Below are positions 3,341 to 47,369 of a stretch of DNA of 50,495 bases, one piece after another. Position numbers and translations under genes: made by a program. Numbering within the stretch: position 1 is the first letter of the stretch; each line of letters opens with the position of its first letter. The stretch is from IMG/VR virus record IMGVR_UViG_3300028585_000028, positions 1 through 50,495 of that record; one strand, written 5' to 3'. The DNA is from a virus. Lineage: Duplodnaviria > Caudoviricetes. The notes below the pieces were generated by a model, which was not told the DNA's origin, ran no database searches, and saw nothing but the letters and a program-made list of their open reading frames with translations.

Positions 3341-3768
3341 TGCCGGGCCGGAACCGCTACGAGGTGGAACGCCGAGTACGACCCGTCCCCGGCACGCTGG
3401 TCGGTCAGCGTGGTCACATGCAGGCGTCGTGGATCTGGAAGTGCCGGGTCTGCCCGAAGGGTGGCTTCCCGTTCGACAAGCAGGCCAACGCCCGAACCGC
3501 GGCGCGCGATCACTGCGACGCGATGCACGGCGGCTGGCAGGAGCCGTCCGAGCTGCCGGAGCACATGAAGAGCAAGGACCACGTCGTCATCGCGTACAAG
3601 CACAACGGCTTCGGCGTGAGCATGGTGCTCGACAACCCGAGCGCAGTCTCTGTGCTCCTCGAACTCCTGACCCCGAATCTGGAGATCCACAGCATCTACG
3701 TTCTCTACCCGGACGGCACCCGCCACGACCGCGGATACACCAAGCTCAAAGAGATGAGGGGTGAGTGA
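3340..3768 (+). CDS. hypothetical protein with CxxC...H zinc-finger-like motif
   Basis: WKCRVC...AARDHCDAMH; TGATG overlap. Confidence 0.7.
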   Translation: MPGRNRYEVERRVRPVPGTLVGQRGHMQASWIWKCRVCPKGGFPFDKQANARTAARDHCDAMHGGWQEPSELPEHMKSKDHVVIAYKHNGFGVSMVLDNPSAVSVLLELLTPNLEIHSIYVLYPDGTRHDRGYTKLKEMRGE

Positions 3769-4238
3769 TGGGGATCTCCCAGAGCCCTGAGGGCATCGCG
3801 TTCCGCAGCGGCGCGCTGCCGAGTGATCCGCGCCATGGCACTCGCCACGGGTACAACAAGCTGGGGTGCCGCTGTCACGCCTGCTCGGCTGCGAGCGCGG
3901 AGTACGGCCGTGAGCTGCGCGCCCGACACGCGGCCGTGAACCCGCCGCGGGTGCGAACTCGGATGCCAGCCGAAGAGCAGCGCGAGCGGGAGCGCGCTCG
4001 GAACCGGAGGAACAGGGCTCGGAAGCGCCGGGAGCAGGCGCGCCGGAGTGCGGTCACGCGGGAGTCGCCGCGAACGGACTGGCCGATGCCGGCGTTCGGT
4101 GGTTCAGTGCACGCGATGGACGGCGGCGCTCTCCTGGGCACGCTGCAGGGCGTCGACTACACCCGCGATCGGGCGCTGCTCCTGACGCCGCAGGGTGAGC
4201 GGGTGGCCGTACCGTTCTCGGCAGTCCGAGCAAAATAG
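3765..4238 (+). CDS. hypothetical basic protein (HGT-x-GY-xx-GCRC motif)
   Basis: HGTRHGYNKLGCRCHAC motif common in actinophage proteins. Confidence 0.7.
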   Translation: MMGISQSPEGIAFRSGALPSDPRHGTRHGYNKLGCRCHACSAASAEYGRELRARHAAVNPPRVRTRMPAEEQRERERARNRRNRARKRREQARRSAVTRESPRTDWPMPAFGGSVHAMDGGALLGTLQGVDYTRDRALLLTPQGERVAVPFSAVRAK

Positions 4239-4246
4239 CGCGCACG

Positions 4247-4267
4247 ACCCTACCAGTGTGGTAGGGT
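4247..4267 (+). promoter_or_regulatory. palindromic promoter/operator ACCCTACCA-gtg-TGGTAGGGT
   Basis: Perfect 9-bp inverted repeat containing an extended -10; intergenic. Confidence 0.75.
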
Positions 4268-4298
4268 CAACCAACCGCACCGACCAAAGGAGCCGCCC

Positions 4299-4712
4299 AT
4301 GGCACTCACCGAGAACTTTCCCCCTCCGGGGGCACCCGAGCCGTACCTTTCCCTCACCGACGGCGTCAACTTCGACATCGTCGCATTCTGCTTCAGCAAC
4401 GCGTTCGAGGCTGGCAAGATCGTCGGCAGCCTGATGAACTGGGAGCACTTCGGCATCCGCGAGATCCAGTACCTGAGCAGCACAGACAAGGGCGAGGGCA
4501 TCCGTTCCTCGTGGGACTTCGGCGACGATGGAGAGCTGCGCGAATCGGCTAAGGAGATCATCGCCCTCCTCACCGTCGATATCGCGGGCAACGAGAAGTG
4601 GCGCCTGGTCCACCCCGGCCAGTGGCTCGTGCTCAGTCACAACTTCGCAGGCTTCTCGATCTGCACGGACCTCGTCTTCCGCAAGACCTACCGGAAGGTG
4701 GTGCTCTCGTGA
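4299..4712 (+). CDS. hypothetical protein
   Basis: 137-aa ORF, AAGGAG RBS. Confidence 0.8.
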   Translation: MALTENFPPPGAPEPYLSLTDGVNFDIVAFCFSNAFEAGKIVGSLMNWEHFGIREIQYLSSTDKGEGIRSSWDFGDDGELRESAKEIIALLTVDIAGNEKWRLVHPGQWLVLSHNFAGFSICTDLVFRKTYRKVVLS

Positions 4713-5245
4713 GCACGGCGGCTGGCAGGGCTCGCAGGTTTCTGACCACTCAGGTCTCAGACACTGCGTTCATCGTCGACGGAATTGCCGTTGTTGGCGT
4801 GCTGCGCGAGCTTCTCGCAGACTTCGACGAGTGCAACTCGTCTGGGGCGATCGACACGGGCTTTTCGTCAGACTCGCTGAACCCGGCCGATCAGCGCGTT
4901 ATCTTTCGGGGCAAGCCGCCGTCGGCGCTGGAGGCTCATGGAGACTCGCACAAGATCCACGTCGACTACTACGGCTCGATCCCGTGGCTCTGCGATGAAT
5001 GCGCTGCCGAATCTCGGCGCACTGGAAGCTCTGAAGATAGTCCAGCCGTGATCGGCCGCGAGCGACTGGTCAGCTCATGGGAGGCGAAGGCGCCCTTCGA
5101 GTCCACCCTGGAGGCTTGTGGACTCACTAACGAGGAGCTGGTCGCGGGCCGGGAGGCACTCTGTGCTGAGGCTGACGAGCTGGAACGCCGCGCCCGGATC
5201 GCTCGATCTATCGTGGAAGCTGCCACGTTGAAAGGTGAAGAATGA
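4709..5245 (+). CDS. hypothetical protein
   Basis: GTGA overlap with the upstream gene; fills the operon gap. Confidence 0.6.
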   Translation: MSTAAGRARRFLTTQVSDTAFIVDGIAVVGVLRELLADFDECNSSGAIDTGFSSDSLNPADQRVIFRGKPPSALEAHGDSHKIHVDYYGSIPWLCDECAAESRRTGSSEDSPAVIGRERLVSSWEAKAPFESTLEACGLTNEELVAGREALCAEADELERRARIARSIVEAATLKGEE

Positions 5246-5382
5246 TCTGGGCGCTGATCGCAATCGTCCTGCTCTGCATCTCGACTGTGACATTTGCGGT
5301 CTTGTGGTTCCGCATGGGTGAAGACTGGTACGACGAGAAGTGCAGAGCTGATGCACTTCAGATCGAACTAGACTTACGGTAG
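5242..5382 (+). CDS. small membrane protein (46 aa)
   Basis: ATGA overlap; MIWALIAIVLLCISTVTFAVLWF transmembrane segment. Confidence 0.6.
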   Translation: MIWALIAIVLLCISTVTFAVLWFRMGEDWYDEKCRADALQIELDLR

Positions 5383-5402: not shown

Positions 5403-5408
5403 GTGCAC

Positions 5409-6291: not shown

Positions 6292-6683
6292 TCGACGAAG
6301 TCAGGCTGATCAAGGATCTGACCAAGTCGATCTCGAACGCGAAGGAGGAGCGCGACAAGCTCACGAACGACAGCTTTTACGCAGGAACCCGTGGCGAGTA
6401 CTCCGGCATGATCCGGAAGGCCGAGAACGTCATCGAAGCCATCCGCGCGGGAGCATACGACGTCACGCCCGAGGAGACCCACTTCGATCGCATCGCAGAG
6501 AGGTGGGGGTCTAGCGTGCCCGGCTCTTCGGAGCAGGCAGTCAGCATCATCGAGGGGCTGAGCATCCGCGCTGCCAGGTCTGTGCTCGAACAGTCCGAGG
6601 TCGAGATCAAGGCGGCAGACTCGAAGAAGGCTCTCGCGATCAACGTCAAGAAGCTCGTGAAGTCCGTCCTGCTCTCCGAGTAG
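6288..6683 (+). CDS. hypothetical protein
   Basis: 131-aa ORF, GTGA overlap, AGGAG RBS. Confidence 0.75.
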   Translation: MIDEVRLIKDLTKSISNAKEERDKLTNDSFYAGTRGEYSGMIRKAENVIEAIRAGAYDVTPEETHFDRIAERWGSSVPGSSEQAVSIIEGLSIRAARSVLEQSEVEIKAADSKKALAINVKKLVKSVLLSE

Positions 6684-9651: not shown

Positions 9652-9713
9652 CCCTCTGTGCTAGTCTGAGCGCGCGACCAGCCATGGTAGCTCCTGCGGT
9701 GTGGTAACGGCAG

Positions 9714-10309: not shown

Positions 10310-12012
10310 GCGAGTTCGACTTCGCAGCAGCACAGAGTGACGCGGAGAAGATCTCGGGCGGTTTCGCTGACGCGTGGCGCATGGCTGGCCGGAAGCTGGA
10401 GCAGGCAGCTCGACAGAAGGTCTACTTCGACAACCCCGCGATCTGGGCCGACGAGGTGCTGCGAAAGAAGGGTGCCGATCAGGGCATCTTCTTGTGGTCG
10501 AAACAGAAAGAGATCGCGCAGTCTCTCGTCGACAACTCGTACACGGCCGTGAAGAGCTGCCACGGTGCGGGCAAGTCGATGTCGGCTGCCGTGTTCGTTT
10601 GCTGGTTTGTGACGACGCGCTTGGCCGAGTTCGGCAACCCGAACGACGTCTTCGTCATCACCACGGCCCCCACGTACTCGCAGGTGCACCTCGTGCTCTG
10701 GGAGGAGATCAGGAAGTTCCACGCGCTCGGCAAGCTGCCCGGCTACATCACGTCGCAGGACGAGTGGAAGATCAACCACGACGGCCGCATCATCGACCTC
10801 GCGGTGGGCCGCAAGCCTGCCGACACGGACGCGAACGGCTTCCAGGGTAAGCACGCGTTCAACCTCATGATCGTGCTCGATGAGGCCAACGGCATCCCCG
10901 AGACGCTGTTCACTGGCGCCATGTCGATGCTGACCGGTGACATGAGTCGGCAGAAGATGCTCGCCATCGGGAACCCTGACGACCCGAACTCGCTGTTCGG
11001 CCAGCAGGATTTCAAGGACAGGCGCGCTGCCGCGGATGCTCGTGTGAAAGCCAACGGCGAAGAGGGCCTCACCGATCACGAGCGCAACGAGCTGATCCGC
11101 AAGGCTCAGACGTGGAACTGGGTGCAGATCAAGGCATGGGACACCCCCAACTTCACCGACGAGCGATTCACGACCCCAGACGTCGTCCTGAAGTCTGTGC
11201 TGGCAAAAGAATGGGTCGATCGGGCTCGCGCCCAGTGGGCCGAGGATGACCCTCGTTGGATCTCGAAGATCGAGGCCGAGTTCCCGTCCGAGTCCAGCGA
11301 CTCCTTCTTCAACCGGAACCTCATCGAGCAGGCGAAGGCGAACGCGCCCGACCCCATGTGGGAGCAGGAAGTCAACTTCCTCGGTGTCGACCTCTCTCGC
11401 TACGGTAAGGACCGCAGCGTCATGGCGCACAACCTCAACGGCGTAGTCACGATTGCCGACGAGTGGTCGAAGTCGGACGCTGTCGCGTCGGCGCGCCGTA
11501 TCCACGAGAAGGCGCTGGAGCTGCACGTTACGCAGGTCCGTGTCGATGAGGGAAACATCGGTGGTGCTGTCATCGACTTCCTGCGCACGATGATGGGCTA
11601 CAACTACCGCGTCGTCGTGATGAACTCCTCGCACTCGTCGCCGGACCTCATGCGCTGGCGCAACGCGCGAGCGTTCTGGTACGACAACCTGAAGGAGTCG
11701 ATGATGCTGAACCGCATCCAGATTCCGACCAAGAAGGAACTCGAAGACGAGCTTTCGGCCATCCGCTACAAGATTCACAAGAGCGGCTCGCTCCTCATGG
11801 AGGACAAGGATGAGATCGCCAAGCGGCTCAATGGCAAGTCCACTGACTTCGCGGATGCCGTGGTGTACGCATCGGTGGACCTGTCGATCTACATCGAAAA
11901 CCCCTTCGACGACGAGCAGCCCCCGAGGGCTGGCGAGACTCGAGTCCTGGAGTTCGGCGAGGAGATGATGCTCCAGCACCTCGTGCACGGCTTCAGCGTG
12001 TCTCCGGTGTGA
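10306..12012 (+). CDS. terL: terminase large subunit
   Basis: Walker A SCHGAGKS, Walker B IVLDEA, IGNP motif, nuclease GVDLSRYGKD and STDFADA. Confidence 0.95.
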   Translation: MSEFDFAAAQSDAEKISGGFADAWRMAGRKLEQAARQKVYFDNPAIWADEVLRKKGADQGIFLWSKQKEIAQSLVDNSYTAVKSCHGAGKSMSAAVFVCWFVTTRLAEFGNPNDVFVITTAPTYSQVHLVLWEEIRKFHALGKLPGYITSQDEWKINHDGRIIDLAVGRKPADTDANGFQGKHAFNLMIVLDEANGIPETLFTGAMSMLTGDMSRQKMLAIGNPDDPNSLFGQQDFKDRRAAADARVKANGEEGLTDHERNELIRKAQTWNWVQIKAWDTPNFTDERFTTPDVVLKSVLAKEWVDRARAQWAEDDPRWISKIEAEFPSESSDSFFNRNLIEQAKANAPDPMWEQEVNFLGVDLSRYGKDRSVMAHNLNGVVTIADEWSKSDAVASARRIHEKALELHVTQVRVDEGNIGGAVIDFLRTMMGYNYRVVVMNSSHSSPDLMRWRNARAFWYDNLKESMMLNRIQIPTKKELEDELSAIRYKIHKSGSLLMEDKDEIAKRLNGKSTDFADAVVYASVDLSIYIENPFDDEQPPRAGETRVLEFGEEMMLQHLVHGFSVSPV

Positions 12013-12146: not shown

Positions 12147-13697
12147 ATGCCTGCATGGAGCAACTTCAGAGAGTCCCTCGGCTTCGGCCCGAGTAAGGGC
12201 GTGGTGGCCGAGCGCGCCATCTCCGAGAGCGGTGTCGCCATGGAGCGCGCTCAGCAGTACGGCCGCGACGCCATGATGGCTGCGCTGTCGATCGCGATCG
12301 AGGACCGCGGGTGGATCAACACCGACCAGTGGAGCCGCGACGGGTCCACGGCTCACCTGACCTTCGAGGCCATCCAGAAGGCCGCAGGCGCCGGCCGAGC
12401 CCTCGTGCAGGCCAACCCGATCATGCAGCGCGCTAGCCACGCCGTCGTCGACTACATCTTCGGCGACGGCATCCGCATCACGGGTGGCGGTCGCCTCATC
12501 ACCAAGCCCCAGAACCGGCGTAACGTCTTCGACGTCGAGGCCCTTCAGCGGCTCCACCTCGCGCGCATCACCGACGGCAACATCCTCTTCCTGCTCGGGG
12601 ACGACGGCGTCATCGAGACGATCCCCTTCTACGAGATCAGCGGCGCGGTCTACTCGCGTCGCGACACGTCTATCATCGAGTACTTCCAGCGCACCTGGAC
12701 ACAGATCACGTACGTGGACGGCCAGCCGAAGCCCGTGACGCGCAAGATGCTCTACCGCAACTCCACGCTCGACACCCCACGTGAGAGCGACTGGGAGATC
12801 GACTACGGTCCCGACTTCGACTACGAGTACCCGCTGGTCACCCCCCGCCGCATCGACGATGTCGAGATCTACACCGACGGCGTGATCAAGCATGTCGCCG
12901 CGAACCGCCTGGAGGGAGCCGCGTGGGGCGTCCCTGACCTCCTGGCGGGCATCTTCTACGCGTCCGAGCACAAGGAGCTCGTGGAGGCCGGAGACAGCGT
13001 CTGGCGGGCTCAGTCGCAGTACGCCGTCAACTACAAGGGCAAGACCAAGAAGCAGGTGGAGGACATCGCTGCGAAGGTGGCCGGCCCCGCCCCGCTCGGC
13101 CCCGACGGCAAGCCCCAGCAGTACGGCGGCACGAACGTCATGGGCAGCGACATCGAGATGCAGCTCATGCAGAAGATCGGCGCGGGCATCGACTTCGCCA
13201 ACTTCGACCCGATCGCCGGGCTGGCGACGACCGCGCTGGGCATCCCTCTCGACACTGTGCTGGGCAAGGAGAAGCCCGACACCATGCTGCCCTACACCAC
13301 GAAGCGTCGCATGAAGCTGCAGCAGGAGTTCTGGAAAGAGAGCTTCCGCGACATCTTCGAGTTCTACGGCAAGCGCGCGGCGAAGGTCTACTTCTCGAAG
13401 CTCGACCCGGACCCGACGCACCGGCAGATGCAGACCATCGCGGGCATCGCGGCGCTGGAGATCGCAAGGCGCACTGAGATCCGTCAGCTCGTCATCGACA
13501 CGCTCGGTGCGGACTGGGACCCCGAGGATCTGCCGGACGCTGACGAGTGGGCTTCGCTCCGCAAGGTGGCTCCCGGCAGCACAGAGGTCGGCGGTCCGAT
13601 CACTCCCGGCCAGGGTCAGACAGGCCGGGTCGGCAGGCTGAACGACGGTGACCACGAGCTGCGTGATGAGGGCCTGCAGGATCACACGCGCAACTAG
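12147..13697 (+). CDS. portal protein
   Basis: 516 aa directly after TerL; synteny. Confidence 0.85.
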   Translation: MPAWSNFRESLGFGPSKGVVAERAISESGVAMERAQQYGRDAMMAALSIAIEDRGWINTDQWSRDGSTAHLTFEAIQKAAGAGRALVQANPIMQRASHAVVDYIFGDGIRITGGGRLITKPQNRRNVFDVEALQRLHLARITDGNILFLLGDDGVIETIPFYEISGAVYSRRDTSIIEYFQRTWTQITYVDGQPKPVTRKMLYRNSTLDTPRESDWEIDYGPDFDYEYPLVTPRRIDDVEIYTDGVIKHVAANRLEGAAWGVPDLLAGIFYASEHKELVEAGDSVWRAQSQYAVNYKGKTKKQVEDIAAKVAGPAPLGPDGKPQQYGGTNVMGSDIEMQLMQKIGAGIDFANFDPIAGLATTALGIPLDTVLGKEKPDTMLPYTTKRRMKLQQEFWKESFRDIFEFYGKRAAKVYFSKLDPDPTHRQMQTIAGIAALEIARRTEIRQLVIDTLGADWDPEDLPDADEWASLRKVAPGSTEVGGPITPGQGQTGRVGRLNDGDHELRDEGLQDHTRN

Positions 13698-16227: not shown

Positions 16228-16262
16228 CCCCCCGCCAGCCTCTGTGCTGCCGGGGGGCTTTT
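16228..16262 (+). terminator. intrinsic terminator after the capsid gene
   Basis: GCCCCCC..GGGGGGC stem plus TTTT. Confidence 0.8.
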
Positions 16263-16283: not shown

Positions 16284-18773
16284 ATGGCAGCCCTCCCCGT
16301 CGATGAGATCCCTCTCAGCAAGATCATCAACGAGCGGACGAGCTGGGACCAGAAGCTGTGGTGGATTCCCTCGCGTGACCTTTACCGCTGGGACAACCGC
16401 ACTGTCTACATGATCGCGATCGGCAACGTCCTCGCGAGCGGTCAGCCGACGCCCCCTCCGACACCTCCGCCTTTCAGCTTCCAGCAGTACGAGTACCTCG
16501 ACACGCGCTTCCTCCTGAAGGAAGACCTGCCGAAGGTGCTGAAGGGCGACCCCGGAGCTGAGGGGGCATCTTCATACGACCTCTGGCTGGATGCCGGCAA
16601 CACGGGCTCCGTCGTCGACTTCTTGAACTCGCTGAAGGGTGAGCCAGGCGCGCCTGGTGATCCGGGTGCAGATGGATGGCAGCCCCCTGTCGGCTTCGAT
16701 GCAGTGCTCAGCGACCAGCAGGGCAAGTTGCCGGACAAAGTGCTCGGAGATCTCACCAAGCGGTACCAGATCAACTCGCACATCGACATTCGCACGCTGT
16801 ACGACGTCGCGAACCCGCCCGCGAACTTCGATAGCGTTCTCACTGCCGCAATCGAGCTGTCTAACTCTACCGCAGCCCTCGCTTCGACGCCGGTGCCGAT
16901 TTTCCTCCCTTCGGGAATGCGCTTCCCTGCGAGCGTCACCACTCTCGATAAGAGTGTCGTCATAGTCGGTGGTGGCACACTCGTGCAGCGCAAGGCGAAG
17001 TACGTCGTCAACGCCACGGCGACCCCTGGTGTAGAGCGTCCCATCACCTCGCTCGCTACGGTCAACTATTCTGCGCAAGCACAGATCGGGACGTCTGCGC
17101 CGCAGCTTTCGACCTACCGAGAGATTCAGGTCAGCCAGTCAAACCTCGTCGACCTTGTCTACGGTGATCAGCTTCTCATCCAGTCAAGCGACGCCTATCC
17201 AGGTCTTTATGTCACGGGCTCCACTCGTTACACCTACAAGCAGGGCTGGGTTCACGTAGACGGCCTCGCGATCAACGTGACGCCGTCATCAGCGAACAGC
17301 ATCATTCAGGACGTCGAGATCGTCGGCGGAGCGTCTGGCGCTCAGGGGTACGTCGTAGCGGTCAACGCGAACTTGACGGCGAACAGCACTGCGCTGTTTT
17401 TCCACTCTATCGCGGGAACTTTCGTTGCAGGAGAAAGTCTGCTCGTCAACGGCGCGGTAGTGGGCACGGTTTCTCGCCAGGCCGCGATCATTACGTCGGA
17501 CAAGCTCGACGATACGACATACGCGACGTCGCCGAAGCTGCGCAAGGTGAACAAAAACATTCGGGTCCACATCGACGTCGAGGTGGATACCGAGAGCGAC
17601 CCGCACGCAAAGATCGGTGCGGCAAATCGACGTGACGCTATCTTTGTCAGCGGCGTTGTTGATCCGAACATCAGAGCGCATTTCTACGCGGGCTACAGTC
17701 GCGCCATCACGGTCGAAACTGTTCGCGGTGGGATCGTGCAGTTCTTTGGCGGCAACCTTGCCAACAACCCGTCACCGGAAGAGGGTGCGTTTGGCTACGC
17801 CACTCAGGCGATGGCCGCGACAGAGGACACCGTCTTCGTGGTCAACGCTCGTGACATTCGTCACGGCTTCACGACAAACACGTACCCGCAAGATGGGCAG
17901 CCCGCAGGCGCGCGCGAATCGCTGCGTTCGGGGTGCCCGAAATATGTCATCGTGCGAGACAGCGTCGTGCACAATTCCATTGGCGCGAGCTTCGACACTC
18001 ACGGCGGAGCATGGGGAGTCCTCTTCCTCAACTGCGTTTCGTACTTCACGGGCTCTGGCGGACAGAATGCAACACGTGATGTCGGTTTCGCCAACCGCGC
18101 GTTTGGCACGATTTTCCGCAACTGCATATCGTACGGCGCGACGTACGGCTTCCAGGACTCGGCCTATTCGTTTGCAACACCCGCCGCGAATACTATTCGC
18201 ATTGAGGGTTGCCGCGCTTACGGATTCCTCAACTCCGCCTATCGCCACGGTTCGGAGCTGACGGGTGGCAATATGGTCTTGGGTGACACCGAATACCTGA
18301 TCGACGACTTCCAGGGTGAAGGCGCGCTTGGACTGCCGCTGGATGCGCCATACCGACAGACCGGCATCGACATAGCTGTTGCGAAAGTCACGATCCTGCG
18401 CAGCATCATCAGGACGGTCAATTTTGCCGGAATCTACGTGCGAAGCGGTGTCAACAACCTCGCTCTCGACGATTTCACGTTTGACCAGACGAAAGCATCC
18501 CCAGCAGGAATCGGGGCGGGTTGGCTCATCTTCTTTGCGGCTGCGATCCGCTTCAGCCGACGTGGCACATTCGGTTCACTCACGGTGTACGGCAACGAGA
18601 CAAACGACTCCACTCGCAGCATTATTGGCTCCGCCAGTGGCGTCGTCGTCAAAATCCGCCGACCCGAAGTCTCTACCGGAAAGTTCATGGTCTCCGAGGC
18701 CAATACCACGCTCTACACTTCTCAAACGGCAACGCCCTCGGTGCTTGACGTGACTTACATGAAATCACTTTAG
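16284..18773 (+). CDS. tailspike/fiber with collagen-like segment and beta-helix (putative depolymerase)
   Basis: KGDPGAEG..SSYDLWLDAGNTGS..FLNSLKGEPGAPGDPG fiber motif; pectin-lyase-like strands (DIRHGFTT, FDTHGG, FLNCVS, FRNCIS). Confidence 0.7.
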   Translation: MAALPVDEIPLSKIINERTSWDQKLWWIPSRDLYRWDNRTVYMIAIGNVLASGQPTPPPTPPPFSFQQYEYLDTRFLLKEDLPKVLKGDPGAEGASSYDLWLDAGNTGSVVDFLNSLKGEPGAPGDPGADGWQPPVGFDAVLSDQQGKLPDKVLGDLTKRYQINSHIDIRTLYDVANPPANFDSVLTAAIELSNSTAALASTPVPIFLPSGMRFPASVTTLDKSVVIVGGGTLVQRKAKYVVNATATPGVERPITSLATVNYSAQAQIGTSAPQLSTYREIQVSQSNLVDLVYGDQLLIQSSDAYPGLYVTGSTRYTYKQGWVHVDGLAINVTPSSANSIIQDVEIVGGASGAQGYVVAVNANLTANSTALFFHSIAGTFVAGESLLVNGAVVGTVSRQAAIITSDKLDDTTYATSPKLRKVNKNIRVHIDVEVDTESDPHAKIGAANRRDAIFVSGVVDPNIRAHFYAGYSRAITVETVRGGIVQFFGGNLANNPSPEEGAFGYATQAMAATEDTVFVVNARDIRHGFTTNTYPQDGQPAGARESLRSGCPKYVIVRDSVVHNSIGASFDTHGGAWGVLFLNCVSYFTGSGGQNATRDVGFANRAFGTIFRNCISYGATYGFQDSAYSFATPAANTIRIEGCRAYGFLNSAYRHGSELTGGNMVLGDTEYLIDDFQGEGALGLPLDAPYRQTGIDIAVAKVTILRSIIRTVNFAGIYVRSGVNNLALDDFTFDQTKASPAGIGAGWLIFFAAAIRFSRRGTFGSLTVYGNETNDSTRSIIGSASGVVVKIRRPEVSTGKFMVSEANTTLYTSQTATPSVLDVTYMKSL

Positions 18774-33783: not shown

Positions 33784-34177
33784 TGTCGGCCTCCTTCTTC
33801 ATGGTGCGTTGCTGGTACAGGATGGTGCCGAGCGAGATGCCGGTCAGCACAGAGAGGAGCTTGGTGGACGTCCCGGTGGCGACGACTCCTCGAATCAGCG
33901 TGCCGCGTGCGGGATCTTCGAGGTTGCCGGTGAGCTGGAGGATGACATCGAGTGTGGCGACGTCGAGCTTACCCGAAACTTCGCTCCGCCTTCCACTCTT
34001 GCGATGAGAAACGAACGCCCGAGAGAATCCGGTGAGGCTGGCGATGTGCGTCGGGCTCCAGAAGTTCTGCTCGGAGAACTTCTCGACCTGCTCGATGATC
34101 CACTCCTTGCTCTTCTGGTTCGAGCGGACATCGTTGCGCAGCACGATGGCTTCCATGACACGTCGCTGATGGTTCAC
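33776..34177 (-). CDS. double helix-turn-helix DNA-binding protein
   Basis: SPTHIASLTGFSRAFVS and STKLLSVLTGISLGTI; GTGA overlap with the primase gene. Confidence 0.7.
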   Translation of the reverse strand: MNHQRRVMEAIVLRNDVRSNQKSKEWIIEQVEKFSEQNFWSPTHIASLTGFSRAFVSHRKSGRRSEVSGKLDVATLDVILQLTGNLEDPARGTLIRGVVATGTSTKLLSVLTGISLGTILYQQRTMKKEADNG

Positions 34178-36522
34178 AGCACTGCCTCCAGGAATCTCTG
34201 CTTCGACGTTGGGTCGATCTGTGAACGGATCGCACCCGACATGACGGCACCCTCGACAAGCTGAGCGAACTCGCCCGGCTTCTTGTCCATCTTCGAGTAT
34301 GCCTCTTCCCACTTCACCCAGCCACCCTTGCGGATGCAGATGTCGACGAGCTGGTTCATGTCCTTCTTCCAGTACGACTCACTGACCATCGTGGATGACT
34401 TCACCATGTCGGCAGCCCATCCGTTCAGGTAGCTGATCGCCACGAGCGCGTCGTCGAGTGTCACCTTGTCACGCTTGTCCGCCATTGCCAAGAGGGTTGC
34501 GGCCTTGATCGCGGACTTGCCCATGCGGTCGAGCGCGGCCTCCAGGATCTCGGCACGCTCGTGATTGCGAACGGACTCGCCGAGATCCCAGTTGGCGTCG
34601 TTCCACCGCTTCCATGCTTCGTCGGTCCACCGGATCGAGATGGTGACACGGTCGGGGCTGAGCTTCGCCCAGTGGGTCCGCGCCAGCATGAGGTTCTTGA
34701 TCAGGGACAGGTAACCGGGGTCGCCACTGATCACTTCGTTCAGCGGTGCCTGGTCGAGCCATTCGCTCTCGCGAGTGCGGGGCGGTGCCTCGCCGATGAC
34801 GTGGATGAAGCGAGCCAGGAATCCCTTGCGGAAGTCGTCGATGGTCAGCACTTCGGTCACCTGCGAGACGATGCCCATGAAGAACAGGACGAAGTTCACT
34901 TCGGCCGACTGTGCGTTCTGCACGTCACCGCTCGCGCGCTTCTTGCCGGAGACCTCGCCGTCGTACAGCGCGGTGAGCACGTCGTTCAGGCCGGCCATGT
35001 AGTTCTTGCCCTTGACCTCACTGAACATGCCCTGCACCTCGTCACGGTGAATCAGTGACGACTGTCGCGGCTTCTCCAGGAGAGCGTTCTCCAGACCTTC
35101 CGACGTGAAGTTCGAGCCCTCGTCGTACTGATGGGTCGAGTTCTGTAGCCCCTTGATGATCTTCAGCATGAGGTTACGCGACGTCGACTTGCGAGCACGA
35201 GTCGTCTTGCCCATGACCAAGAACCACAGGTTCAGTCGCAGCTTGCCGAACTTCGGGTGAGCGTGACCGTACTCGCCAAACACGAGCGAGAGGATCGTGA
35301 AAATGCTGGCGATGTGATACACCGGCGCAGCGTCGGTCTTAGACGTTGCCCAGTCCACGTAGTCGTCGATGATCGTGTGAAGCGAGTCGACTCGTACGTG
35401 CTCCTCTTCGGTGAGCAGGTCGATCTCAAAGTCGGGCACGGCCACCGTTTGCGGCATGTCCATCGAGGGCGTGACAGCCGCGATCTCGAACGTCGAGTTC
35501 GATGCGTCGTATGTCGACGCCATGTGCGTAGTCGTGCGCATCCCGTGCGTCTGCTCCGCTTTGTAGACGTCGCGCCACAGGTCTAGGTCGGGGTTCGGCC
35601 TCGGGGTGTATCCACCCTTGCCGTCTTTCACTCCACGAGCGAACTTGTTGCAGGCAGACTGACGAGCAACGACGAACACCTCGGGGGCCGAGAAGCCCAT
35701 GCGGAACATCTCGTTCTCCAGCATGAAGAGGCGCTCATCCCAGCCGGACGATGTGCCGAAACCGGTCGGCTCCTCCGTGAACAGCTTCAGGAGATCCTGT
35801 CGGCCACCGAGCTGCGCCAGCACAGAGGTGATGTCGGGGAGGTCGGCCGGAAGCTCATCGAGCGAGACGGCTCCGACATAGGAGGAGTTCTCCGTCTTCG
35901 GGTATGCCTCTTCGAGCTGCTCGATGGTGTACGTGTGCCCGTTGTCCACCCACTCGATGCGGTGGGCTCCGCCGCCCTTGGTGTTGAGCGTGCCGGGGAT
36001 GCGAAGGATCTGCGTCGAGTCGTATCCGCCCGGGTCGGTGCCGCAGTGCTTGTGACCCTCCACCATGTCGTCGTGCATCGAGCTGTCGTGGCGGTGCGCC
36101 GCGCTGATCTCGAACCCCACGCGCTCCAGGCGCTGCGGGTCCACTTCGCCCTCGGTGATCCAGTAGTCGTGCTGATGACCGGGCGACGAGAAGACTGTGA
36201 TCGAGGGAGGCAGTCGGTAGCCACCGGTCTTCGATCCGTCCACGCCGTCGTTGTCGACGTACGCCGCGCGCTGCGCGATGCGGTCAGTGGAACGACGCGT
36301 TGCCGACTTGTAGAGCGGGACTGCGAAGTAGAGATCCTCTTCGAGTCGCAGGCTCATGTAGCGGCCGATGCGATCACGTTCGAGCGGCCAGCGGAACTCC
36401 TTCGTGTCGGACGGGTCGCCGGTGCGATTCCCCGCCTCGTCTTGTCGCTTCTGCTGGAACTGAACGTAGTGGTTGTCGTTCTGTAGGCCCCAGACGCGGT
36501 CAAGGAAATCGAGCTGCTCCAC
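34174..36522 (-). CDS. primase-helicase (RepB'/AEP-type primase plus DUF3987-like ATPase)
   Basis: YVDND, SSPGHQHDYW, LRIPGTLNTK; C-terminal LNLWFLVMG..RARKST, HRDE, GFLARF. Confidence 0.8.
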   Translation of the reverse strand: MEQLDFLDRVWGLQNDNHYVQFQQKRQDEAGNRTGDPSDTKEFRWPLERDRIGRYMSLRLEEDLYFAVPLYKSATRRSTDRIAQRAAYVDNDGVDGSKTGGYRLPPSITVFSSPGHQHDYWITEGEVDPQRLERVGFEISAAHRHDSSMHDDMVEGHKHCGTDPGGYDSTQILRIPGTLNTKGGGAHRIEWVDNGHTYTIEQLEEAYPKTENSSYVGAVSLDELPADLPDITSVLAQLGGRQDLLKLFTEEPTGFGTSSGWDERLFMLENEMFRMGFSAPEVFVVARQSACNKFARGVKDGKGGYTPRPNPDLDLWRDVYKAEQTHGMRTTTHMASTYDASNSTFEIAAVTPSMDMPQTVAVPDFEIDLLTEEEHVRVDSLHTIIDDYVDWATSKTDAAPVYHIASIFTILSLVFGEYGHAHPKFGKLRLNLWFLVMGKTTRARKSTSRNLMLKIIKGLQNSTHQYDEGSNFTSEGLENALLEKPRQSSLIHRDEVQGMFSEVKGKNYMAGLNDVLTALYDGEVSGKKRASGDVQNAQSAEVNFVLFFMGIVSQVTEVLTIDDFRKGFLARFIHVIGEAPPRTRESEWLDQAPLNEVISGDPGYLSLIKNLMLARTHWAKLSPDRVTISIRWTDEAWKRWNDANWDLGESVRNHERAEILEAALDRMGKSAIKAATLLAMADKRDKVTLDDALVAISYLNGWAADMVKSSTMVSESYWKKDMNQLVDICIRKGGWVKWEEAYSKMDKKPGEFAQLVEGAVMSGAIRSQIDPTSKQRFLEAVL

Positions 36523-36560: not shown

Positions 36561-36598
36561 GAGAGCCCCGCGAGCATGGCTTTACCCACGGGGCTCTC
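36561..36598. terminator. long intergenic hairpin (terminator or processing site)
   Basis: GAGAGCCCCG..CGGGGCTCTC perfect 10-bp stem after the SSB gene. Confidence 0.55.
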
Positions 36599-36644
36599 TG
36601 TGCTGCTCAGCGGCGCAGCTACCGCATCTGGTGACGACCCTGGG

Positions 36645-39493: not shown

Positions 39494-39803
39494 GCATGTC
39501 CTCGATTCTGGCGATCAGATTGTTGATCGCAACTCGTTGTGCGGTGACCCTACCAGGGACGAACATCTCGCCGTAGAAGGATGCTCCCGCGAATTGGTTC
39601 TTGCCGTCGAACGTGACCGTGCCGACCTTCATGTTGTTCGCATCCCGCAGCTCGAACGTCTGGCCGGTGAACTCGTGGTTACCCAGCATCGTGACGCCCG
39701 TGCCATCGAGCGCATCCCAGACCTGATCGTAACCGGACGGCTTGCGGACTGCCCCGCGGCTGTTCTTCCGCGAGTGATCGTACTCTCTCCCGTCTGTGCT
39801 CAC
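39480..39803 (-). CDS. hypothetical protein
   Basis: GTGA overlap; 107 aa. Confidence 0.65.
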   Translation of the reverse strand: MSTDGREYDHSRKNSRGAVRKPSGYDQVWDALDGTGVTMLGNHEFTGQTFELRDANNMKVGTVTFDGKNQFAGASFYGEMFVPGRVTAQRVAINNLIARIEDMHGNA

Positions 39804-40444
39804 GCGTCCACCGCCGCCTGCTGGATGCTCGGGAAGGGCTGAAGGGCAGGGGCCGGCTTTGGCTCGGGCTTCGGCTTGACCTCGCGCGGGCGGGTGGGAG
39901 CCTTCTTCGGGGCCGGCTTCTTGACGGGCGCCGGGCGCACCGCCTCCACGACGGCAGGCTCGGCCTCGACCACGGGCGCAGCGCGCAGCGGCTTCACGAT
40001 GAGGTCCGTCAGCACAGAGGCTGCGAGGTAGACGGCCCACGGCATGATCCCGGCGAACCCGATGCCACCCCAGAACGCGAGCGGGTCGGGGTTGGCGAGC
40101 GCGGCGACGTGCACGATGTTGCCTGCGCTGCTGATCGCGGTGAAGACGATGGTCCCGAGGATGGCCTTCTTCACCTTGGCCTTCTTCCGCTCGTCGTAGC
40201 GCAGGATCACCTCGGCCGTCTTGTAGACGATGATCGCGAGGTCGACGGCGAGTGGGAGCGCCCAGTACAGGTAGGGCGGGAGCCCCAACCAGGGCGCGAC
40301 GGCGTAGAGCCCGCTGAAGGAGACGATCGACGCGAACACGAACAGGCCGAACACTGCGCCGGTGACAGCGTAGAGAAGCCATGGCGCTCCGGCGCTGACG
40401 CGAGCCCCGGCTTGCGTCTTAGGGGATCTCGGGGACGTGCTCAT
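39800..40444 (-). CDS. DUF2637-like membrane protein with Pro/Lys-rich tail
   Basis: VSFSGL..LPLAVD..SSAGNIVH; 4 TM. Confidence 0.75.
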   Translation of the reverse strand: MSTSPRSPKTQAGARVSAGAPWLLYAVTGAVFGLFVFASIVSFSGLYAVAPWLGLPPYLYWALPLAVDLAIIVYKTAEVILRYDERKKAKVKKAILGTIVFTAISSAGNIVHVAALANPDPLAFWGGIGFAGIMPWAVYLAASVLTDLIVKPLRAAPVVEAEPAVVEAVRPAPVKKPAPKKAPTRPREVKPKPEPKPAPALQPFPSIQQAAVDA

Positions 40445-42938: not shown

Positions 42939-44443
42939 GCCTGAGCTTTCAGGCCCTGGCGAAGCTCCTTGCGCTCCTGGCGCTTGCGAGCGATGACCTC
43001 TTCTTCGATGGTGCCACGCGTGATGATCTGCCACGTCTGGTTGCGACGCTTCTGACCCGTGCGGCGCAGACGACCGATGGCCTGCACGTTGAACACGTCG
43101 TCCTCTTCCCACGACAGCCACACCTCTCGGCGTGCCTTGTGCTGAAGCCCGTCGGTGCCCTCGGCGATGGAACGGATGGTCGCGATAATGACGTTCGGTC
43201 CGTCGTCGGTGCCGAAGCGCGCCTTCAGGTCGTTGCGCTCCGTCGTCTTCAGGTCACCCGTCCACGCCTCAGCCCGGATGCCGGGCACCTTGTTGGCGCG
43301 CGTGGTGGCGGCGAGAGCGGCGACCTTCGAGTGCGTGAACACCAGCACAGGGTCACCGGGCTCGACGATGTCGGCGAGCAGGTCGTTGAGAATGTCGAGC
43401 TTCGACGATTTGGCGTCGGGCAGCATCGTGACGGAACCGTCGGCGGCGATGGTCGGCTGCGCGAGCGCGACCTGGCGGAGGCGCACGTTCTTCACCATCT
43501 TGTTGGCGATGACACTGGGGGTGCGGACACCCTCTTCGTTCTCGACCCAGAATGCGGGTGCGTCGGACTCGATCTGCTTGTAGACCTTCGCCTGCGACGG
43601 TGCCATGTCGACGTAGATCTCGATGGGCTCTTCGACGGGCGGCAGCGTTGCGTTGACGCCGTTGGGGTGCCACTCGCAGCACCGCTCCTCTTCCAGGTGC
43701 TGAATGTAGCAGGGCACCTCGGAGATGACGGACCCGGGCTGCTTCTCGGGGCCGATGATGTAGTCCTCGCCGAACCCGGAGAAGAAGGGGTTGATCGTGA
43801 GGATGAAGTGACGGCGGAGCCATGAGCGGAAGTCGTCGACGCCGGGCCTGCCCATGTAGAGCGCGAACCGCTCGAACACATTGGCGTTGCGGTGATCCTT
43901 GTTGCCGTACCAGATCCAGCGCAGCACGTTGTAGAGCCCGTGCATCTTATTGCGGGCGGGCGTGCCGGAGAGCCCGATGCGGAACTGCGTGTTCAGACGC
44001 CAGACGGCCTTCGCGGTGGCGGTGCCGTGACCGGCCATGCGGTGCACCTCATCCAGGATGGCCCCGGTGATGCCCTTGAACAGACGCCAGTCCTGGCGGC
44101 GCATGAGTTCCCACCCGACAAGGTGGATGCTGAAGCCGTCGCGCGCCTCTTTCAGGTCGATGAGACCCGTCTTGTTCTTGGTGTTGATGACGTGCACCTC
44201 GGCGTCGGGCGCGAACTCTGCGATGGTCTCGCGCCACTGTTCGATGGTGTGCAACGGTGCGACGACCAGCCAGACGCCACGGTAGACGGCCATCGTGGCA
44301 ACGCCGGTGCCGGTCTTGCGCGAACCCAGGCACCCGGCGTAGAGTACCTGACCGTCGTTCTTTACGATCTGCTCGACGTCATGCTTCTGGTATTCGGCCA
44401 ACGGGCGACCGGGAAGGTTGTCGAGTGTCTCGCGAACGTTCAT
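42935..44443 (-). CDS. SNF2-like (SF2) DNA helicase
   Basis: LGSRKT, LVVAP, ILDEVHR, LSGTP, EGTDGLQ, QAIGRLRRTGQ. Confidence 0.9.
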   Translation of the reverse strand: MNVRETLDNLPGRPLAEYQKHDVEQIVKNDGQVLYAGCLGSRKTGTGVATMAVYRGVWLVVAPLHTIEQWRETIAEFAPDAEVHVINTKNKTGLIDLKEARDGFSIHLVGWELMRRQDWRLFKGITGAILDEVHRMAGHGTATAKAVWRLNTQFRIGLSGTPARNKMHGLYNVLRWIWYGNKDHRNANVFERFALYMGRPGVDDFRSWLRRHFILTINPFFSGFGEDYIIGPEKQPGSVISEVPCYIQHLEEERCCEWHPNGVNATLPPVEEPIEIYVDMAPSQAKVYKQIESDAPAFWVENEEGVRTPSVIANKMVKNVRLRQVALAQPTIAADGSVTMLPDAKSSKLDILNDLLADIVEPGDPVLVFTHSKVAALAATTRANKVPGIRAEAWTGDLKTTERNDLKARFGTDDGPNVIIATIRSIAEGTDGLQHKARREVWLSWEEDDVFNVQAIGRLRRTGQKRRNQTWQIITRGTIEEEVIARKRQERKELRQGLKAQA

Positions 44444-44769: not shown

Positions 44770-44818
44770 TGGGCAGGAGGGGAATCGAACCCCTCGGTAC
44801 GGCCGAACCCGGCTGCCC
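44770..44818 (-). ncRNA. 49-nt mini-tRNA (acceptor stem plus T arm)
   Basis: GGGCAG CCG-GGTT-CGG CCGTACC GAGGGG-TTCGATT-CCCCTC CTGCCC A. Confidence 0.7.
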
Positions 44819-44824
44819 TCTGTG

Positions 44825-44977
44825 CTACTGCTCGATGAGCCGTGCTCTGGCGACGCCGACCGGCTCATCGACGCCGGGGTACGTGACCTTGACGTACTCC
44901 AGAGTGACGAACTCGACGATAGTGACCGGCTTCAGTGTGCCGCGCACGTCGAGCAGAACTTCCTGACCTTCTCGCAT
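44825..44977 (-). CDS. small hypothetical protein (50 aa, SH3-like pattern)
   Basis: GGAGGAGG RBS; MREGQEVLLDVRGTLKPVTIVEF. Confidence 0.7.
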   Translation of the reverse strand: MREGQEVLLDVRGTLKPVTIVEFVTLEYVKVTYPGVDEPVGVARARLIEQ

Positions 44978-45622: not shown

Positions 45623-45851
45623 TCGCGTCCTCCTCTTCGTCTTGGTCGAGCCACCAGTCGATGTGCTCGATGATCTCTTGCAGGGTGGGTGCGTCGTGGT
45701 CCCACGTGAAGTCTTCGTACACCCCGCTGACGTAGAGCTGCACTCCACGCTTCCCGTCGCCGAAGACTTTGCACCGCACCCCGCGATGCAGGATGACGAC
45801 CGTCGTCGGTGCCGACCTGTGCCGCGTGAAAGCGACTCGGGTGCGGCTCAC
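45615..45851 (-). CDS. hypothetical protein
   Basis: GTGA overlap; 78 aa. Confidence 0.6.
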   Translation of the reverse strand: MSRTRVAFTRHRSAPTTVVILHRGVRCKVFGDGKRGVQLYVSGVYEDFTWDHDAPTLQEIIEHIDWWLDQDEEEDANG

Positions 45852-46387
45852 GAGTAGTCGCTCTCGTCCTGCCGGTAGCCGGAGCGGGGGGCGAACGTGA
45901 GCGGGTTGGAATCGCCGCCCTCGTAGGCTGCTCGGTCGTCCAGGTTGAATCGCTTCCCGCGCGGCCCCTTCCACGGCTTCGGGTCGAGCGGGATGTTTTC
46001 GTGGGCCGCGTACTTCAGCGCCATGGCGCGCGCGTCGGACGCGGTGCGGAAGACGGAACCCGACGTGTCGTCGAAGCCCGGCGCGAGGTAGGTGTCGATC
46101 TTGTCGAGCGTCGAGTGGTAGCGCAGGATGGCGTGAAGGGTGCCGATCCGCGTCGGCTGCGCGACGATGAAAAGTGCGCCACCCTCGATGGGGAACGGAC
46201 GCGCCACGGCGCGCCACTTGCGCGGCATGTGCTTGGTAATGCGGGACCAGTCGATCTTTTCGGGCATGGGTGCCTCCAGGGTGAGTCCAGTGAATCCAGT
46301 GATGAGCGATGAGGGGGTGAGCTTCGCCAGATCAGCGGCGGTCGGTAGCGGGCTGCCAGCAGGCAGAAAGTACAGGTCTCCACTCAT
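45848..46387 (-). CDS. hypothetical protein
   Basis: 179-aa ORF; ATGA overlap. Confidence 0.7.
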   Translation of the reverse strand: MSGDLYFLPAGSPLPTAADLAKLTPSSLITGFTGLTLEAPMPEKIDWSRITKHMPRKWRAVARPFPIEGGALFIVAQPTRIGTLHAILRYHSTLDKIDTYLAPGFDDTSGSVFRTASDARAMALKYAAHENIPLDPKPWKGPRGKRFNLDDRAAYEGGDSNPLTFAPRSGYRQDESDYS

Positions 46388-46845
46388 CGGAGCAGGCTGT
46401 TCAGCTTGGCGTGGTCGCCGTTGCGGTACGCCTCGGTGGCCTGGCGAAGGATCTCGACGGCGTTCTCGTCGTTCTCCGGGTCACCCTCGTAGATCGTGGC
46501 GTCGTTCAGCATGACGGTGATCGTGCCTGTCCACAGGTTCGTGTCGATGAGCACGGTCGAGTTGGACACGTCGACGTCGAGCATTCCCGGCTGCTCATGT
46601 GCGGCGTCGTCGGTGGGGTCGTCGGGGCGGGCGGCGTTGTCCACGCTCGCGTCCGGCAGGGGCTGCGGCGTCCAGTCGCGGACTCGGCCGGCCACCAGGA
46701 TCGCGAGATCGTCGCCGCTCATAGGCCACTCACCCGGCAGTGCTGCCACTTCCGACACGGTGGCGTGCGTAGCCACCGCTGCGACTGCGGTCGCGTGCTG
46801 CTCGACCCGCCCCGTTTCCAACTCACGCTCTTTCGTTGCGTCCAT
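46384..46845 (-). CDS. hypothetical acidic protein
   Basis: 153-aa ORF. Confidence 0.7.
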   Translation of the reverse strand: MDATKERELETGRVEQHATAVAAVATHATVSEVAALPGEWPMSGDDLAILVAGRVRDWTPQPLPDASVDNAARPDDPTDDAAHEQPGMLDVDVSNSTVLIDTNLWTGTITVMLNDATIYEGDPENDENAVEILRQATEAYRNGDHAKLNSLLR

Positions 46846-46990
46846 TGCTCTCGTCCATTATCTGTGCGGGCGACAAGTGGCAGTAAAGACACTCGTCGCG
46901 TTGGTCTCTGTGATTAAAGATGATTCGGTGCGTCCGACGGTACTTCCACACCGCCTGGCAGTAGTAGTCCGACGGTTCGTCGGCCATGGC

Positions 46991-47167
46991 TTACAGGCGG
47001 AACCGTGCGACGACGCGGGCTTTCGTCGTGTCGTCGTGGTCGGTGAGCCAACCGGCCAACTGGTCGGCCACCTCGTCGTGAACCTCGCGCGCCCGTCGTT
47101 CGGGTCGCGTCGTGCGTCGTGCGGTGCCGTCTTCGGCGCGGACGGTCTCTGCGATTGCGGTTGCCAT
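46991..47167 (-). CDS. small hypothetical protein
   Basis: AGGA RBS; 58 aa. Confidence 0.6.
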   Translation of the reverse strand: MATAIAETVRAEDGTARRTTRPERRAREVHDEVADQLAGWLTDHDDTTKARVVARFRL

Positions 47168-47171
47168 GGTC

Positions 47172-47369
47172 CTACTTCTTTCCAGCGCGGTTGACGTTCT
47201 CGATGATGGATGCGGCGGCTGCCGCCCTCTGTGCTGCCTGCGCCTGTCGGCGCTCCCGCTGTTCACGGTCGGCGGCGTTACGTGCACGTCGCTCTCGGTC
47301 GGCGTCGTGCTGCGCGGCGCGTGCCAGCACAGAGGGGTCGCTCGCCCGGCGTTCTGCTCGGTTGCTCAT
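47172..47369 (-). CDS. small Arg/Ala-rich protein
   Basis: 65-aa ORF; ATGA overlap. Confidence 0.6.
   Translation of the reverse strand: MSNRAERRASDPSVLARAAQHDADRERRARNAADREQRERRQAQAAQRAAAAASIIENVNRAGKK

Follow-up and report, generated by a model that had tools for sequence, protein, structure and literature searches.

A dispersed nine-nucleotide word in a 50-kb tailed-phage genome as a probable priming site of the phage's own primase-helicase

The stretch of DNA analysed here (the window) is the whole of the IMG/VR virus record IMGVR_UViG_3300028585_000028, with a length of 50,495 bp, a completeness of 91% as estimated by CheckV and a GC content of about 63%. Rightward genes occupy the region from 2.4 to 32.8 kb, where small early genes are followed by those for terminase, portal, capsid and tail proteins, and leftward replication genes occupy the region from 32.8 to 50.5 kb. 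The 9-mer CTCTGTGCT (hereafter the word) is scattered through both regions as a selected signal, and its reader is probably the predicted primase-helicase encoded among the replication genes. The closest cultured relatives of the window are Nonagon and Commonplace, two lytic phages of Curtobacterium flaccumfaciens that are syntenic with it, with an identity of 52% in the portal protein and a few DNA stretches that are about 77% identical.

All 17 exact copies of the word listed in a first-pass annotation of this DNA were recovered, each at its position and on its strand (10 on the + strand and 7 on the − strand), and its rough estimate of less than one expected copy was borne out by dinucleotide shuffles, which gave 0.48 copies on average and a maximum of 3 in 100 shuffles. 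The ten 8/9 matches that it had named also exist (908, 4479, 6578, 11193, 17078, 24971, 31278, 37435, 39792 and 49941), and the total of matches with one mismatch at most was 39, versus 13.6 expected. The most over-represented 9-mer of the window is AGCACAGAG (z 37.7 with an order-3 Markov model), related words lead the over-representation at each length k from 7 to 11, and the extended form CAGCACAGAGG occurs 8 times versus 0.02 expected. The CTGTGCT core is present in 34 copies, 19 on the + strand and 15 on the − strand, and the variant GTCTGTGCT adds 7 copies to the word family. The family consensus is c-(C/G)-T-CTGTGCT-G, or 5'-cC(T)C-T-GTG-C-Tg-3' in the template-strand form. Around the 34 sites, conservation does not extend past about 11 nucleotides (nt) and no hairpin is conserved in the flanks, and the sites are single, not iterated arrays. 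The sites are the following, with exact copies of the word first, then GTCTGTGCT variants and then further CTGTGCT cores:

3648..3656, + strand: exact copy in gene 3340-3768 (+), read xxC TCT GTG CTx (SVL)
5159..5167, + strand: exact copy in a stretch without a confident gene call
9654..9662, + strand: exact copy, intergenic, directly past the stop of gene 9241-9651
10329..10337, − strand: exact copy, antisense in the terminase large subunit gene
13578..13586, − strand: exact copy, antisense in the portal gene (S-T-E); the related IMG/VR contig L016 has a site at the same position
16240..16248, + strand: exact copy in the loop and stem of the terminator hairpin past the capsid gene
19306..19314, + strand: exact copy near the start of gene 19223-19714; site kept in Nonagon and L016
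22656..22664, − strand: exact copy, intergenic, 12 nt ahead of the tape-measure gene start
22750..22758, + strand: exact copy in the tape-measure gene (ASVL)
28854..28862, + strand: exact copy in gene 28404-29999 (LCA frame)
33846..33854, − strand: exact copy in the small gene 33776-34177 (−)
35819..35827, − strand: exact copy within the primase gene (TSVL); the phage Yappy has a CTGTGC site at the homologous place
36596..36604, + strand: exact copy, intergenic, 74 nt upstream of the primase start
40011..40019, − strand: exact copy in gene 39800-40444 (−) (ASVL)
44818..44826, + strand: exact copy at the 3' end of the small gene 44825-44947 (−), mostly intergenic
47227..47235, + strand: exact copy, antisense in a small (−) gene at about 47172-47368
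47326..47334, − strand: exact copy, sense in the small gene at about 47172-47368 (−) (PSVL)
908..916, + strand: GTCTGTGCT variant
4479..4487, − strand: GTCTGTGCT variant
6578..6586, + strand: GTCTGTGCT variant
11193..11201, + strand: GTCTGTGCT variant
31278..31286, − strand: GTCTGTGCT variant
39792..39800, + strand: GTCTGTGCT variant
49941..49949, + strand: GTCTGTGCT variant
18..24, + strand: CTGTGCT core
1825..1831, − strand: CTGTGCT core
13255..13261, + strand: CTGTGCT core
17078..17084, − strand: CTGTGCT core, as ATCTGTGCT
20165..20171, − strand: CTGTGCT core
25907..25913, − strand: CTGTGCT core
28314..28320, + strand: CTGTGCT core
29249..29255, − strand: CTGTGCT core, as CCCTGTGCT, the Nonagon dialect
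31655..31661, + strand: CTGTGCT core, as CCCTGTGCT
43344..43350, − strand: CTGTGCT core, as CCCTGTGCT

Neither codon usage nor protein sequence creates the word, because a within-gene synonymous shuffle, with the non-coding DNA kept fixed, gave 7.42 copies on average, and no more than 10 in any of 300 shuffles, versus the 17 observed. The enrichment therefore survives the codon-preserving null that had been put forward as a check. The shuffle mean consists of the 7 fixed non-coding copies and about 0.4 coding copies, and 10 coding copies are observed. Sense-strand copies favour the register xxS-TCT-GTG-CTx, which encodes S-V-L, the other two registers requiring cysteine, and antisense copies use further registers; the word thus appears in several frames and on both coding senses. 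A peptide origin was considered for the seven sense-strand copies that encode S-V-L, but a protein-sequence cause is excluded by the synonymous shuffle. About 5-7 of the 17 exact copies sit in non-coding DNA, which makes up about 12% of the genome. The near-cognates CTGTGCA, CTGTGCC and ATGTGC are about two-fold below the order-2 expectation in the window and in Nonagon; this depletion is suggestive of an avoidance of partial sites, although it is too weak to be used. The word is supported as a selected cis signal that is read at the DNA level.

Several local contexts that the first-pass annotation had attached to single copies were inspected. The copy at 16240 does lie in the loop and stem of a strong hairpin (free energy −36.9 kcal/mol, z −5.96) followed by CUUUUCC; it is the only copy of the word located in a hairpin, and relatives too carry a word copy just past their capsid gene. 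At 9654 the pattern TGnTAnnnT of an extended -10 can be fitted by eye, but the promoter scan reported nothing there. In a contig of a related strain from run X3, 481 other letters replace 23 bases (window 9623-9647) just upstream of this copy. The mini-tRNA said to adjoin the copy at 44818 was not recovered, since ARAGORN and Rfam found none in 44700-44830; the sole tRNA seen with them was a tRNA-Ala(cgc) at 42111-42191 (−). A 'tRNA-OTHER' is annotated in Nonagon at a place comparable to the 44818 region (L009 46938-47025). Two word copies in opposite orientation lie 99 nt apart in the very Arg/Ala-rich small gene 47172-47368 (−), and the copies at 22656 and 22750, likewise opposed and 94 nt apart, lie on either side of the tape-measure start.

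Over-representation in relatives, another check proposed from the sequence, was found, and the word or a close dialect of it is the top k-mer in four related phages. The top k-mer is CCCCTGTGCTG in Nonagon and Commonplace and CCTCTGTGCTG in L016, and Nonagon carries 34 copies of CTGTGCT, the same number as the window. The host side was represented by plasmids of the host family and by unrelated phages of the same host strains. No match to CTCTGTGCT was found in the Clavibacter plasmid pCM2 (70 kb) or, overall, in 560 kb of Microbacteriaceae plasmids, and CYCTGTGCT was absent from Curtobacterium plasmids (237 kb); in 490 kb of five Microbacteriaceae plasmids, CYCTGTGCT occurred 2 times, whereas its reversed control occurred 10 times. 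The two C. flaccumfaciens strains on which Nonagon and Yappy were isolated have also yielded five unrelated phages, and in the 232 kb of these phages CTGTGCT was counted 11 times versus 34 for the reversed control; their top k-mers were unrelated to the word of the window. These counts below those of the reversed controls, in plasmids and co-host phages alike, may reflect a compositional effect or mild avoidance. Shrew and Nonagon, which share a host strain, use different words, each fitting its own primase clade. Since the word is absent or not enriched in plasmids and co-host phages and is at the top in relatives, it is a signal of the phage lineage and not of the host.

The coding sites were carried over to relatives through tblastn alignments, and a counterpart was found for 1 of 15 mapped sites in Nonagon, 2 of 7 in L016 and 1 of 9 in Yappy. 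The places kept are the start of the head-to-tail stopper gene, the C-terminus of the portal protein and the position just past the capsid gene. Conservation at synonymous positions, whose lack the first-pass annotation had regarded as telling against selection, is therefore literally missing for most sites, and density and spacing are kept instead. That density is kept while positions turn over argues against gene-specific operators. The orientation of the sites is independent of transcription (13 co-oriented, 11 opposed), and both orientations are interleaved without polarity in every tenth of the genome (19 + and 15 −).

With both strands merged, the gaps between the 34 sites are a little more even than expected at random, with a coefficient of variation (CV) of 0.66 (P 0.006), and the largest gap is 3.3 kb (P 0.003). 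Taken separately, the strands are far more regular: the 19 sites of the + strand show a gap CV of 0.48 (P 0.0015), and the 15 sites of the − strand a CV of 0.29 (reached in 0 of 2000 simulations), with most gaps between 2.0 and 4.2 kb. The mean interval between sites is about 2.7 kb on the + strand and about 3.4 kb on the − strand. The per-strand gap CVs were 0.41 and 0.44 in Nonagon and 0.44 and 0.52 in Shrew, and the overall per-strand regularity for 24 strands of 12 genomes corresponded to a Stouffer z of −6.8. Orientation alternates above chance in 12 of 14 genomes, as expected of two interleaved lattices. Because spacing is more regular per strand than per duplex, a reader of single strands is suggested.

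Yappy, a more distant Curtobacterium phage, is enriched in CCCCTGTGC, and IMG/VR phages found through the primase are enriched in TGTGCG. The gene at 34174-36522 (−) was therefore tested as a correlate of the word. A tblastn search with the first 330 amino acids (aa) of its product retrieved 119 phage records from many hosts. A panel of whole genomes of diverse phages was then used, and an order-3 Markov model served as the reference for ranking every hexamer. Commonplace and L033 were left out as near-duplicates, and so was L016, whose primase lies outside the available part. The primase-positive hosts were Curtobacterium, Clavibacter, Arthrobacter, Microbacterium, Gordonia, Mycobacterium, Brevundimonas, Serratia and Pseudomonas. 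The 11 controls were seven actinophages (four on the host strain of Nonagon and one on that of Yappy), L5, D3112, an IMG/VR phage with only the helicase half and pCM2. Of the 14 lineages with an N-terminal-domain homologue, 13 had an S-TGTG-S hexamer within the top 11 of about 2000, in 8 of them at the first rank, and 1 of 11 controls had one there (Fisher P 3.5e-5, Mann-Whitney P about 4e-5, values that overstate independence because the panel members are related by ancestry and were selected through primase homology). The words of the individual phages are the following:

Thunderclap (Arthrobacter): GTGTGC
CMP1 (Clavibacter): GCTGTGCCT
Polewnik (Brevundimonas): CCCCTGTGCG
GTE2 (Gordonia): TGGTGTGG
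Muddy (Mycobacterium): CGGGTGTGG
Serbin (Serratia) and PMBT14 (Pseudomonas): GTGTGG
Triscuit (Microbacterium) and Shrew (Curtobacterium): TGGTGTGGA

GTG is central in the top word of all 14 primase-positive lineages, and T is found 5' of GTG in 13 of them. Which base follows GTG on its 3' side varies with the primase clade, C in clade I (TGTGC) and G in clade II (TGTGG). In a maximum-likelihood tree of the N-terminal domain both clades are well supported (100/100), Polewnik being the sole discordant row, and the 3'-letter label requires 2 changes on this tree, a number as low as that in only 2 of 500 shuffles. The primase is the sole window protein with a tblastn match in 12 of 12 comparison genomes, which had been selected for having it, and the next most widespread window proteins reach 6 of 12. 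The part common to the GTGTGG group (clade II) is restricted to the N-terminal 300 aa or so, the C-terminal helicase being different, and phages with the helicase part only (the IMG/VR phage L031 and Lupine) give no GTGTGG-type signal. Other words were also prominent in some of the genomes: the top words of Lupine are GACCTGCTC/AGCAGGTC (30 versus 3.7), Yotsuba and Pippin15 have the top words CCATTTTGA and AAAGGAAA in common, and CMP1 contains AATTGCA (31 versus 8) alongside its primase-type word.

The gene product proposed as the reader was analysed by profile and structure comparison:

34174..36522, − strand: predicted primase-helicase, proposed reader of the word, 782 aa

Residues 1-210 of this protein are predicted to form an archaeo-eukaryotic primase (AEP) catalytic domain and residues from about 230 to 327 a helical bundle, with a disordered linker (328-362) between the bundle and an AAA+/DUF3987 helicase (370-782). 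An alignment of 12 homologues contains the AEP motifs D90/D92 (DxD), S113-P-G-H-x-H118 and G161-x-D163...R174-x-P176...N180 (GxD...RxPGxxN), followed by a conserved helical region. A profile search of PDB sequences matched RepB' of RSF1010 (3H20, E 0.004), along profile positions 85-269 and thus reaching its helical part, and the AEP domain of S-2L PrimPol (6ZP9, E 0.02). An AlphaFold2 model built from 36 homologues has a mean predicted local distance difference test score (pLDDT) of 82.5, with bundle helices (231-327) mostly between 72 and 90, and the Foldseek matches of the model were RepB' (E 5e-7), 6ZP9 (template modelling score 0.67), and poxvirus D5/E5 and MCM helicases. ORF904 of pRN1 was not among the listed fold or sequence matches. 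As judged from the model and the profiles, the product of gene 34174-36522 is predicted to be an AEP primase with a helix bundle, fused to an AAA+ helicase.

The word is probably, though with considerable room for doubt, a strand-specific priming site of the phage's own primase-helicase. In the proposed mechanism, which is drawn by analogy from pRN1 ORF904 and NrS-1 PrimPol, the helix-bundle domain would bind GTG and the base 3' of it (C in the window) on a single-stranded template, and primer synthesis would start opposite the T immediately 5' of GTG. With this start, the first nucleotide would be A and the primer would read 5'-AGAGG... across the conserved CCTC flank. The C or G located 3' of GTG would act as a modulating base, and the clade-specific 5' flank would correspond to the first bases copied. 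A '+' copy would prime leftward synthesis, that is, the lagging strand of a rightward fork, and a '−' copy the opposite. With a lattice of sites at the scale of Okazaki fragments, forks moving in either direction would always meet a strong start site. Both the identity of the reader as the primase and the start of priming at the word are what we infer from the genome comparisons and from this analogy.

Several results weigh against this assignment. A word of 9-11 nt is unusually long, the known dispersed primase sites being of 3-5 nt, and the bare pentamer TGTGC is at expectation in the window (95 versus 101), so that only the extended form of the word is selected. The regularity of spacing is weak or absent in some panel genomes, among them on both strands of Yappy, Serbin and GTE2 and on the minus strand of Thunderclap and Polewnik. 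The phage CN1A has the primase, yet its top word is CCGTGCG, with GTG and no 5' T, and its best S-TGTG-S rank is 322; conversely, the control Lupine, whose N-terminus does not match the domain profile, has CTGTGC at rank 10. Besides the kinship within the panel, clade I phages share further replication genes in addition to the primase.

Other features of the genome concern the setting of the phage and the candidates for alternative readers. Part of the phage is contained, in the form of contigs, in 13 public sequencing runs, the source being mostly litter, straw and soil metagenomes, and 1034 differences were counted across four of these runs. An IMG/VR single-protein search with the window terminase gave no match, alignment searches with the portal protein and the primase gave 2 and 4 loci, respectively, and the contig scan with the lysin-like protein matched only distant non-actinobacterial metagenome-assembled genomes. 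Among the phage proteins are a Cas4-like exonuclease, a Sak4-like ATPase and one that resembles a resolvase, and a weak HNH-like match is present at 3765-4238 (E 6e-4). Family-library scans covered 22 of the 77 predicted proteins, and neither a repressor nor an integrase was found among these 22 or in the Nonagon annotation. Between the tail-terminator and major-tail genes lies a gene for a SAP-domain protein of 94 aa (20658-20942, +; Pfam PF02037, E 2.6e-9), whose Nonagon counterpart is annotated as a DNA-binding protein. The left end of the window (1-2390) has few genes, lower GC, a strong GC skew (0.17) and three core copies of the word; the matching end of Nonagon lies in a sequence repeated at both genome ends, with an inverted CTGTGCTGTACC pair at 699 and 763. 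A second over-represented word, TGGTAGGG(T), occurs in 12 copies at 1994-12140, 39548 and 42901, mostly in the early rightward region. Its half-sites often form the palindrome ACCCTACCA-N3-TGGTAGGGT, with perfect pairs at 4248/4259 and 5383/5394, and it also matches an extended -10 (TGnTAnnnT); it could be an operator, a pair of divergent promoters or an RNA hairpin.

The selected DNA-level cis signal proposed in the first-pass annotation is supported by these results, and none of the four mechanisms that it had named (a Chi-like site, a programmed nick site, a stoperator-like site or a site for a DNA-organising protein) provides the best fit. A further possibility lies closest to priming, namely that the primase-helicase reads the word as a duplex binding or loading site, so that the genome would be dotted with weak origins or with sites of helicase loading. 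Binding to origin iterons is known for some primase-helicases, and the link to the primase-helicase gene does not tell which of its activities uses the word. Such a role is nevertheless considered unlikely, with a chance that is small without being trifling: clade II keeps T-GTG-G with a different helicase, only the N-terminal primase and bundle being shared, the more regular spacing per strand than for merged strands fits a single-strand reader, and the sites do not form iterated arrays. The per-strand regularity is also at odds with another phage DNA-binding or organising protein, such as the SAP-domain protein (20658-20942) or a small helix-turn-helix protein, acting in compaction, packaging or global regulation. 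The even spacing along the genome, the location of the SAP-domain gene within the structural operon and the restriction of the family-library scans to 22 of the 77 predicted proteins speak for a protein of this kind. However, the primase apart, homologues of any given window protein occur in at most 6 of the 12 signature genomes, and the 3' letter of the motif tracks the primase tree, so that this explanation is given a low probability.

The nucleases of the phage leave some room for a Chi-like signal addressed to host AdnAB/RecBCD or to the phage Cas4-family exonuclease with the ATPase. In addition to the exonuclease, the Sak4-like ATPase and the resolvase-like protein, density and not position is selected, as for Chi, and Nonagon has its inverted site pair 0.7 kb from each genome end, within the end-repeated sequence. 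A Chi-like or host-factor role is not sustained by the host-family plasmids and co-host phages, where enrichment is missing, or by the interleaved orientations without polarity; moreover, two phages of one host strain use different words, and the exonuclease is present in only 3 of 12 signature-bearing genomes. Chi sites are not known to be evenly spaced per strand, and this role is judged very improbable. Slightly less credit still is given to programmed single-strand nicks in the packaged DNA, as in T5 or tf, which a short asymmetric word dispersed through the genome and the weak HNH-like match at 3765-4238 would suit; both strands carry near-equal numbers of sites, and no nickase is common to the panel. 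The faintest chance is left for a stoperator-like or operator site of a transcription regulator. The share of exact copies located in the small non-coding fraction would agree with it, as would four copies that continue as TGCTA(G/C)T and resemble an extended -10, but the independence of orientation from transcription and the turnover of positions among relatives contradict a stoperator-like role. The scanned proteins and the Nonagon annotation offer no repressor or integrase for it, and the promoter scan finds nothing at the sites. Readings of the word as a Shine-Dalgarno sequence (reverse word GAGG) or as a promoter (TGCTAGT) were rejected because they fit only one to four sites.

Beyond the window, it appears possible, with somewhat less than an even chance, that one family of phage AEP primases stamps a T-GTG-(C/G) signature, with clade-specific flanks and a regular per-strand lattice, on every genome that carries it. 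The word would then have been lengthened to 9-11 nt in the Curtobacterium-phage lineage of the window, and Okazaki starts would be hard-wired at about 17-34 sites of fixed sequence, roughly 3 kb apart per strand. If this is true, primase specificity, and perhaps fragment length, would be readable from genome sequence alone, and primase and genome would co-evolve a 'dialect' irrespective of the host. Template specificity could then be predicted cheaply, from genomes only, for a widespread family of phage primases that includes that of Muddy, a phage used therapeutically, and some of the most over-represented words in these genomes would be accounted for. The hard-wiring of lagging-strand start sites would become directly testable, and annotators would be warned that such words are not promoters or operators. 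Sequence-specific AEP priming is known from few enzymes, in vitro, and we know of no description of a genome-shaping effect of AEP primase specificity. In the main texts of the literature searched, no report was found of the word of the window, of GTGTGG or the GGTGTGGA words (Muddy, GTE2, Triscuit), or of primase sites gridded per strand, and a search for GGTGTGG and phage gave nothing relevant. Primase recognition words are already known; the long, lineage-specific, per-strand grid and the domain-wide genomic signature were not found in the literature search.

Among known dispersed signals, Chi resembles the word in being an over-represented asymmetric word selected for density and not for position. 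However, Chi is recognised by a host enzyme, occurs at raised frequency in the host genome and is polar with replication, whereas the word of the window is not enriched in host-family plasmids or co-host phages and has interleaved orientations. The stoperators of Cluster A mycobacteriophages, asymmetric sites of about 13 bp with 20-30 copies inside and between genes, are similar in number and distribution, but they follow the direction of transcription and are targets of a temperate phage's repressor, whereas the sites of the window ignore transcription and no repressor or integrase appears among the scanned proteins. Primases of the T7 gp4/DnaG type also use short template words (GTC-based, CTG) that set the starts of Okazaki primers; their fold (Toprim and zinc finger) is unrelated to the AEP of the window, their words have 3-5 nt, and we know of no evenly spaced and over-represented extended form of them.

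Closer parallels are found among AEP-type primases with a helix bundle, as described in the available parts of the corresponding papers. By sequence profile, the solved structure closest to the window primase is that of RepB' of RSF1010 (3H20), a primase with catalytic and helix-bundle domains and very high template specificity (PMC8567376). The RepB' signals ssiA and ssiB are two 40-nt inverted-repeat sites at one origin, whereas the window has a short word without conserved hairpin flanks, scattered in 24-34 copies. NrS-1 PrimPol, like the window protein a phage AEP with a helix bundle, requires GTG, works best with GTGG/GTGA and also uses TTTGGTTA, and starts at the first base upstream (PMC8718748). 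The fourth base is thus modulating there too, and its GTGG is the word of clade II. Its specificity was found by assay, whereas that of the window is deduced from genome statistics; in the NrS-1 genome, TTTGGTTA sites are much rarer than GTG sites, and the part of the paper available describes neither enrichment nor spacing (PMC8718748). ORF904 of pRN1 has the same domain order as the window protein (AEP, helix bundle and helicase); it primes only with a GTG template, starts at the base immediately 5' of GTG and depends critically on the base 3' of it (PMC2034472). The available text on pRN1 describes no genome-wide enrichment or spacing (PMC2034472). The centre of the window word, T-GTG-C, fits this GTG rule, and the minimal pRN1 substrate 5'-CTTCTTCTGTGC-3' happens to end in the TCTGTGC of the window (PMC2034472). 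Unlike ORF904, for which GTG and one base are recognised, the window selects a word of 9-11 nt arranged as a per-strand grid, and its putative specificity is read from the genome alone.

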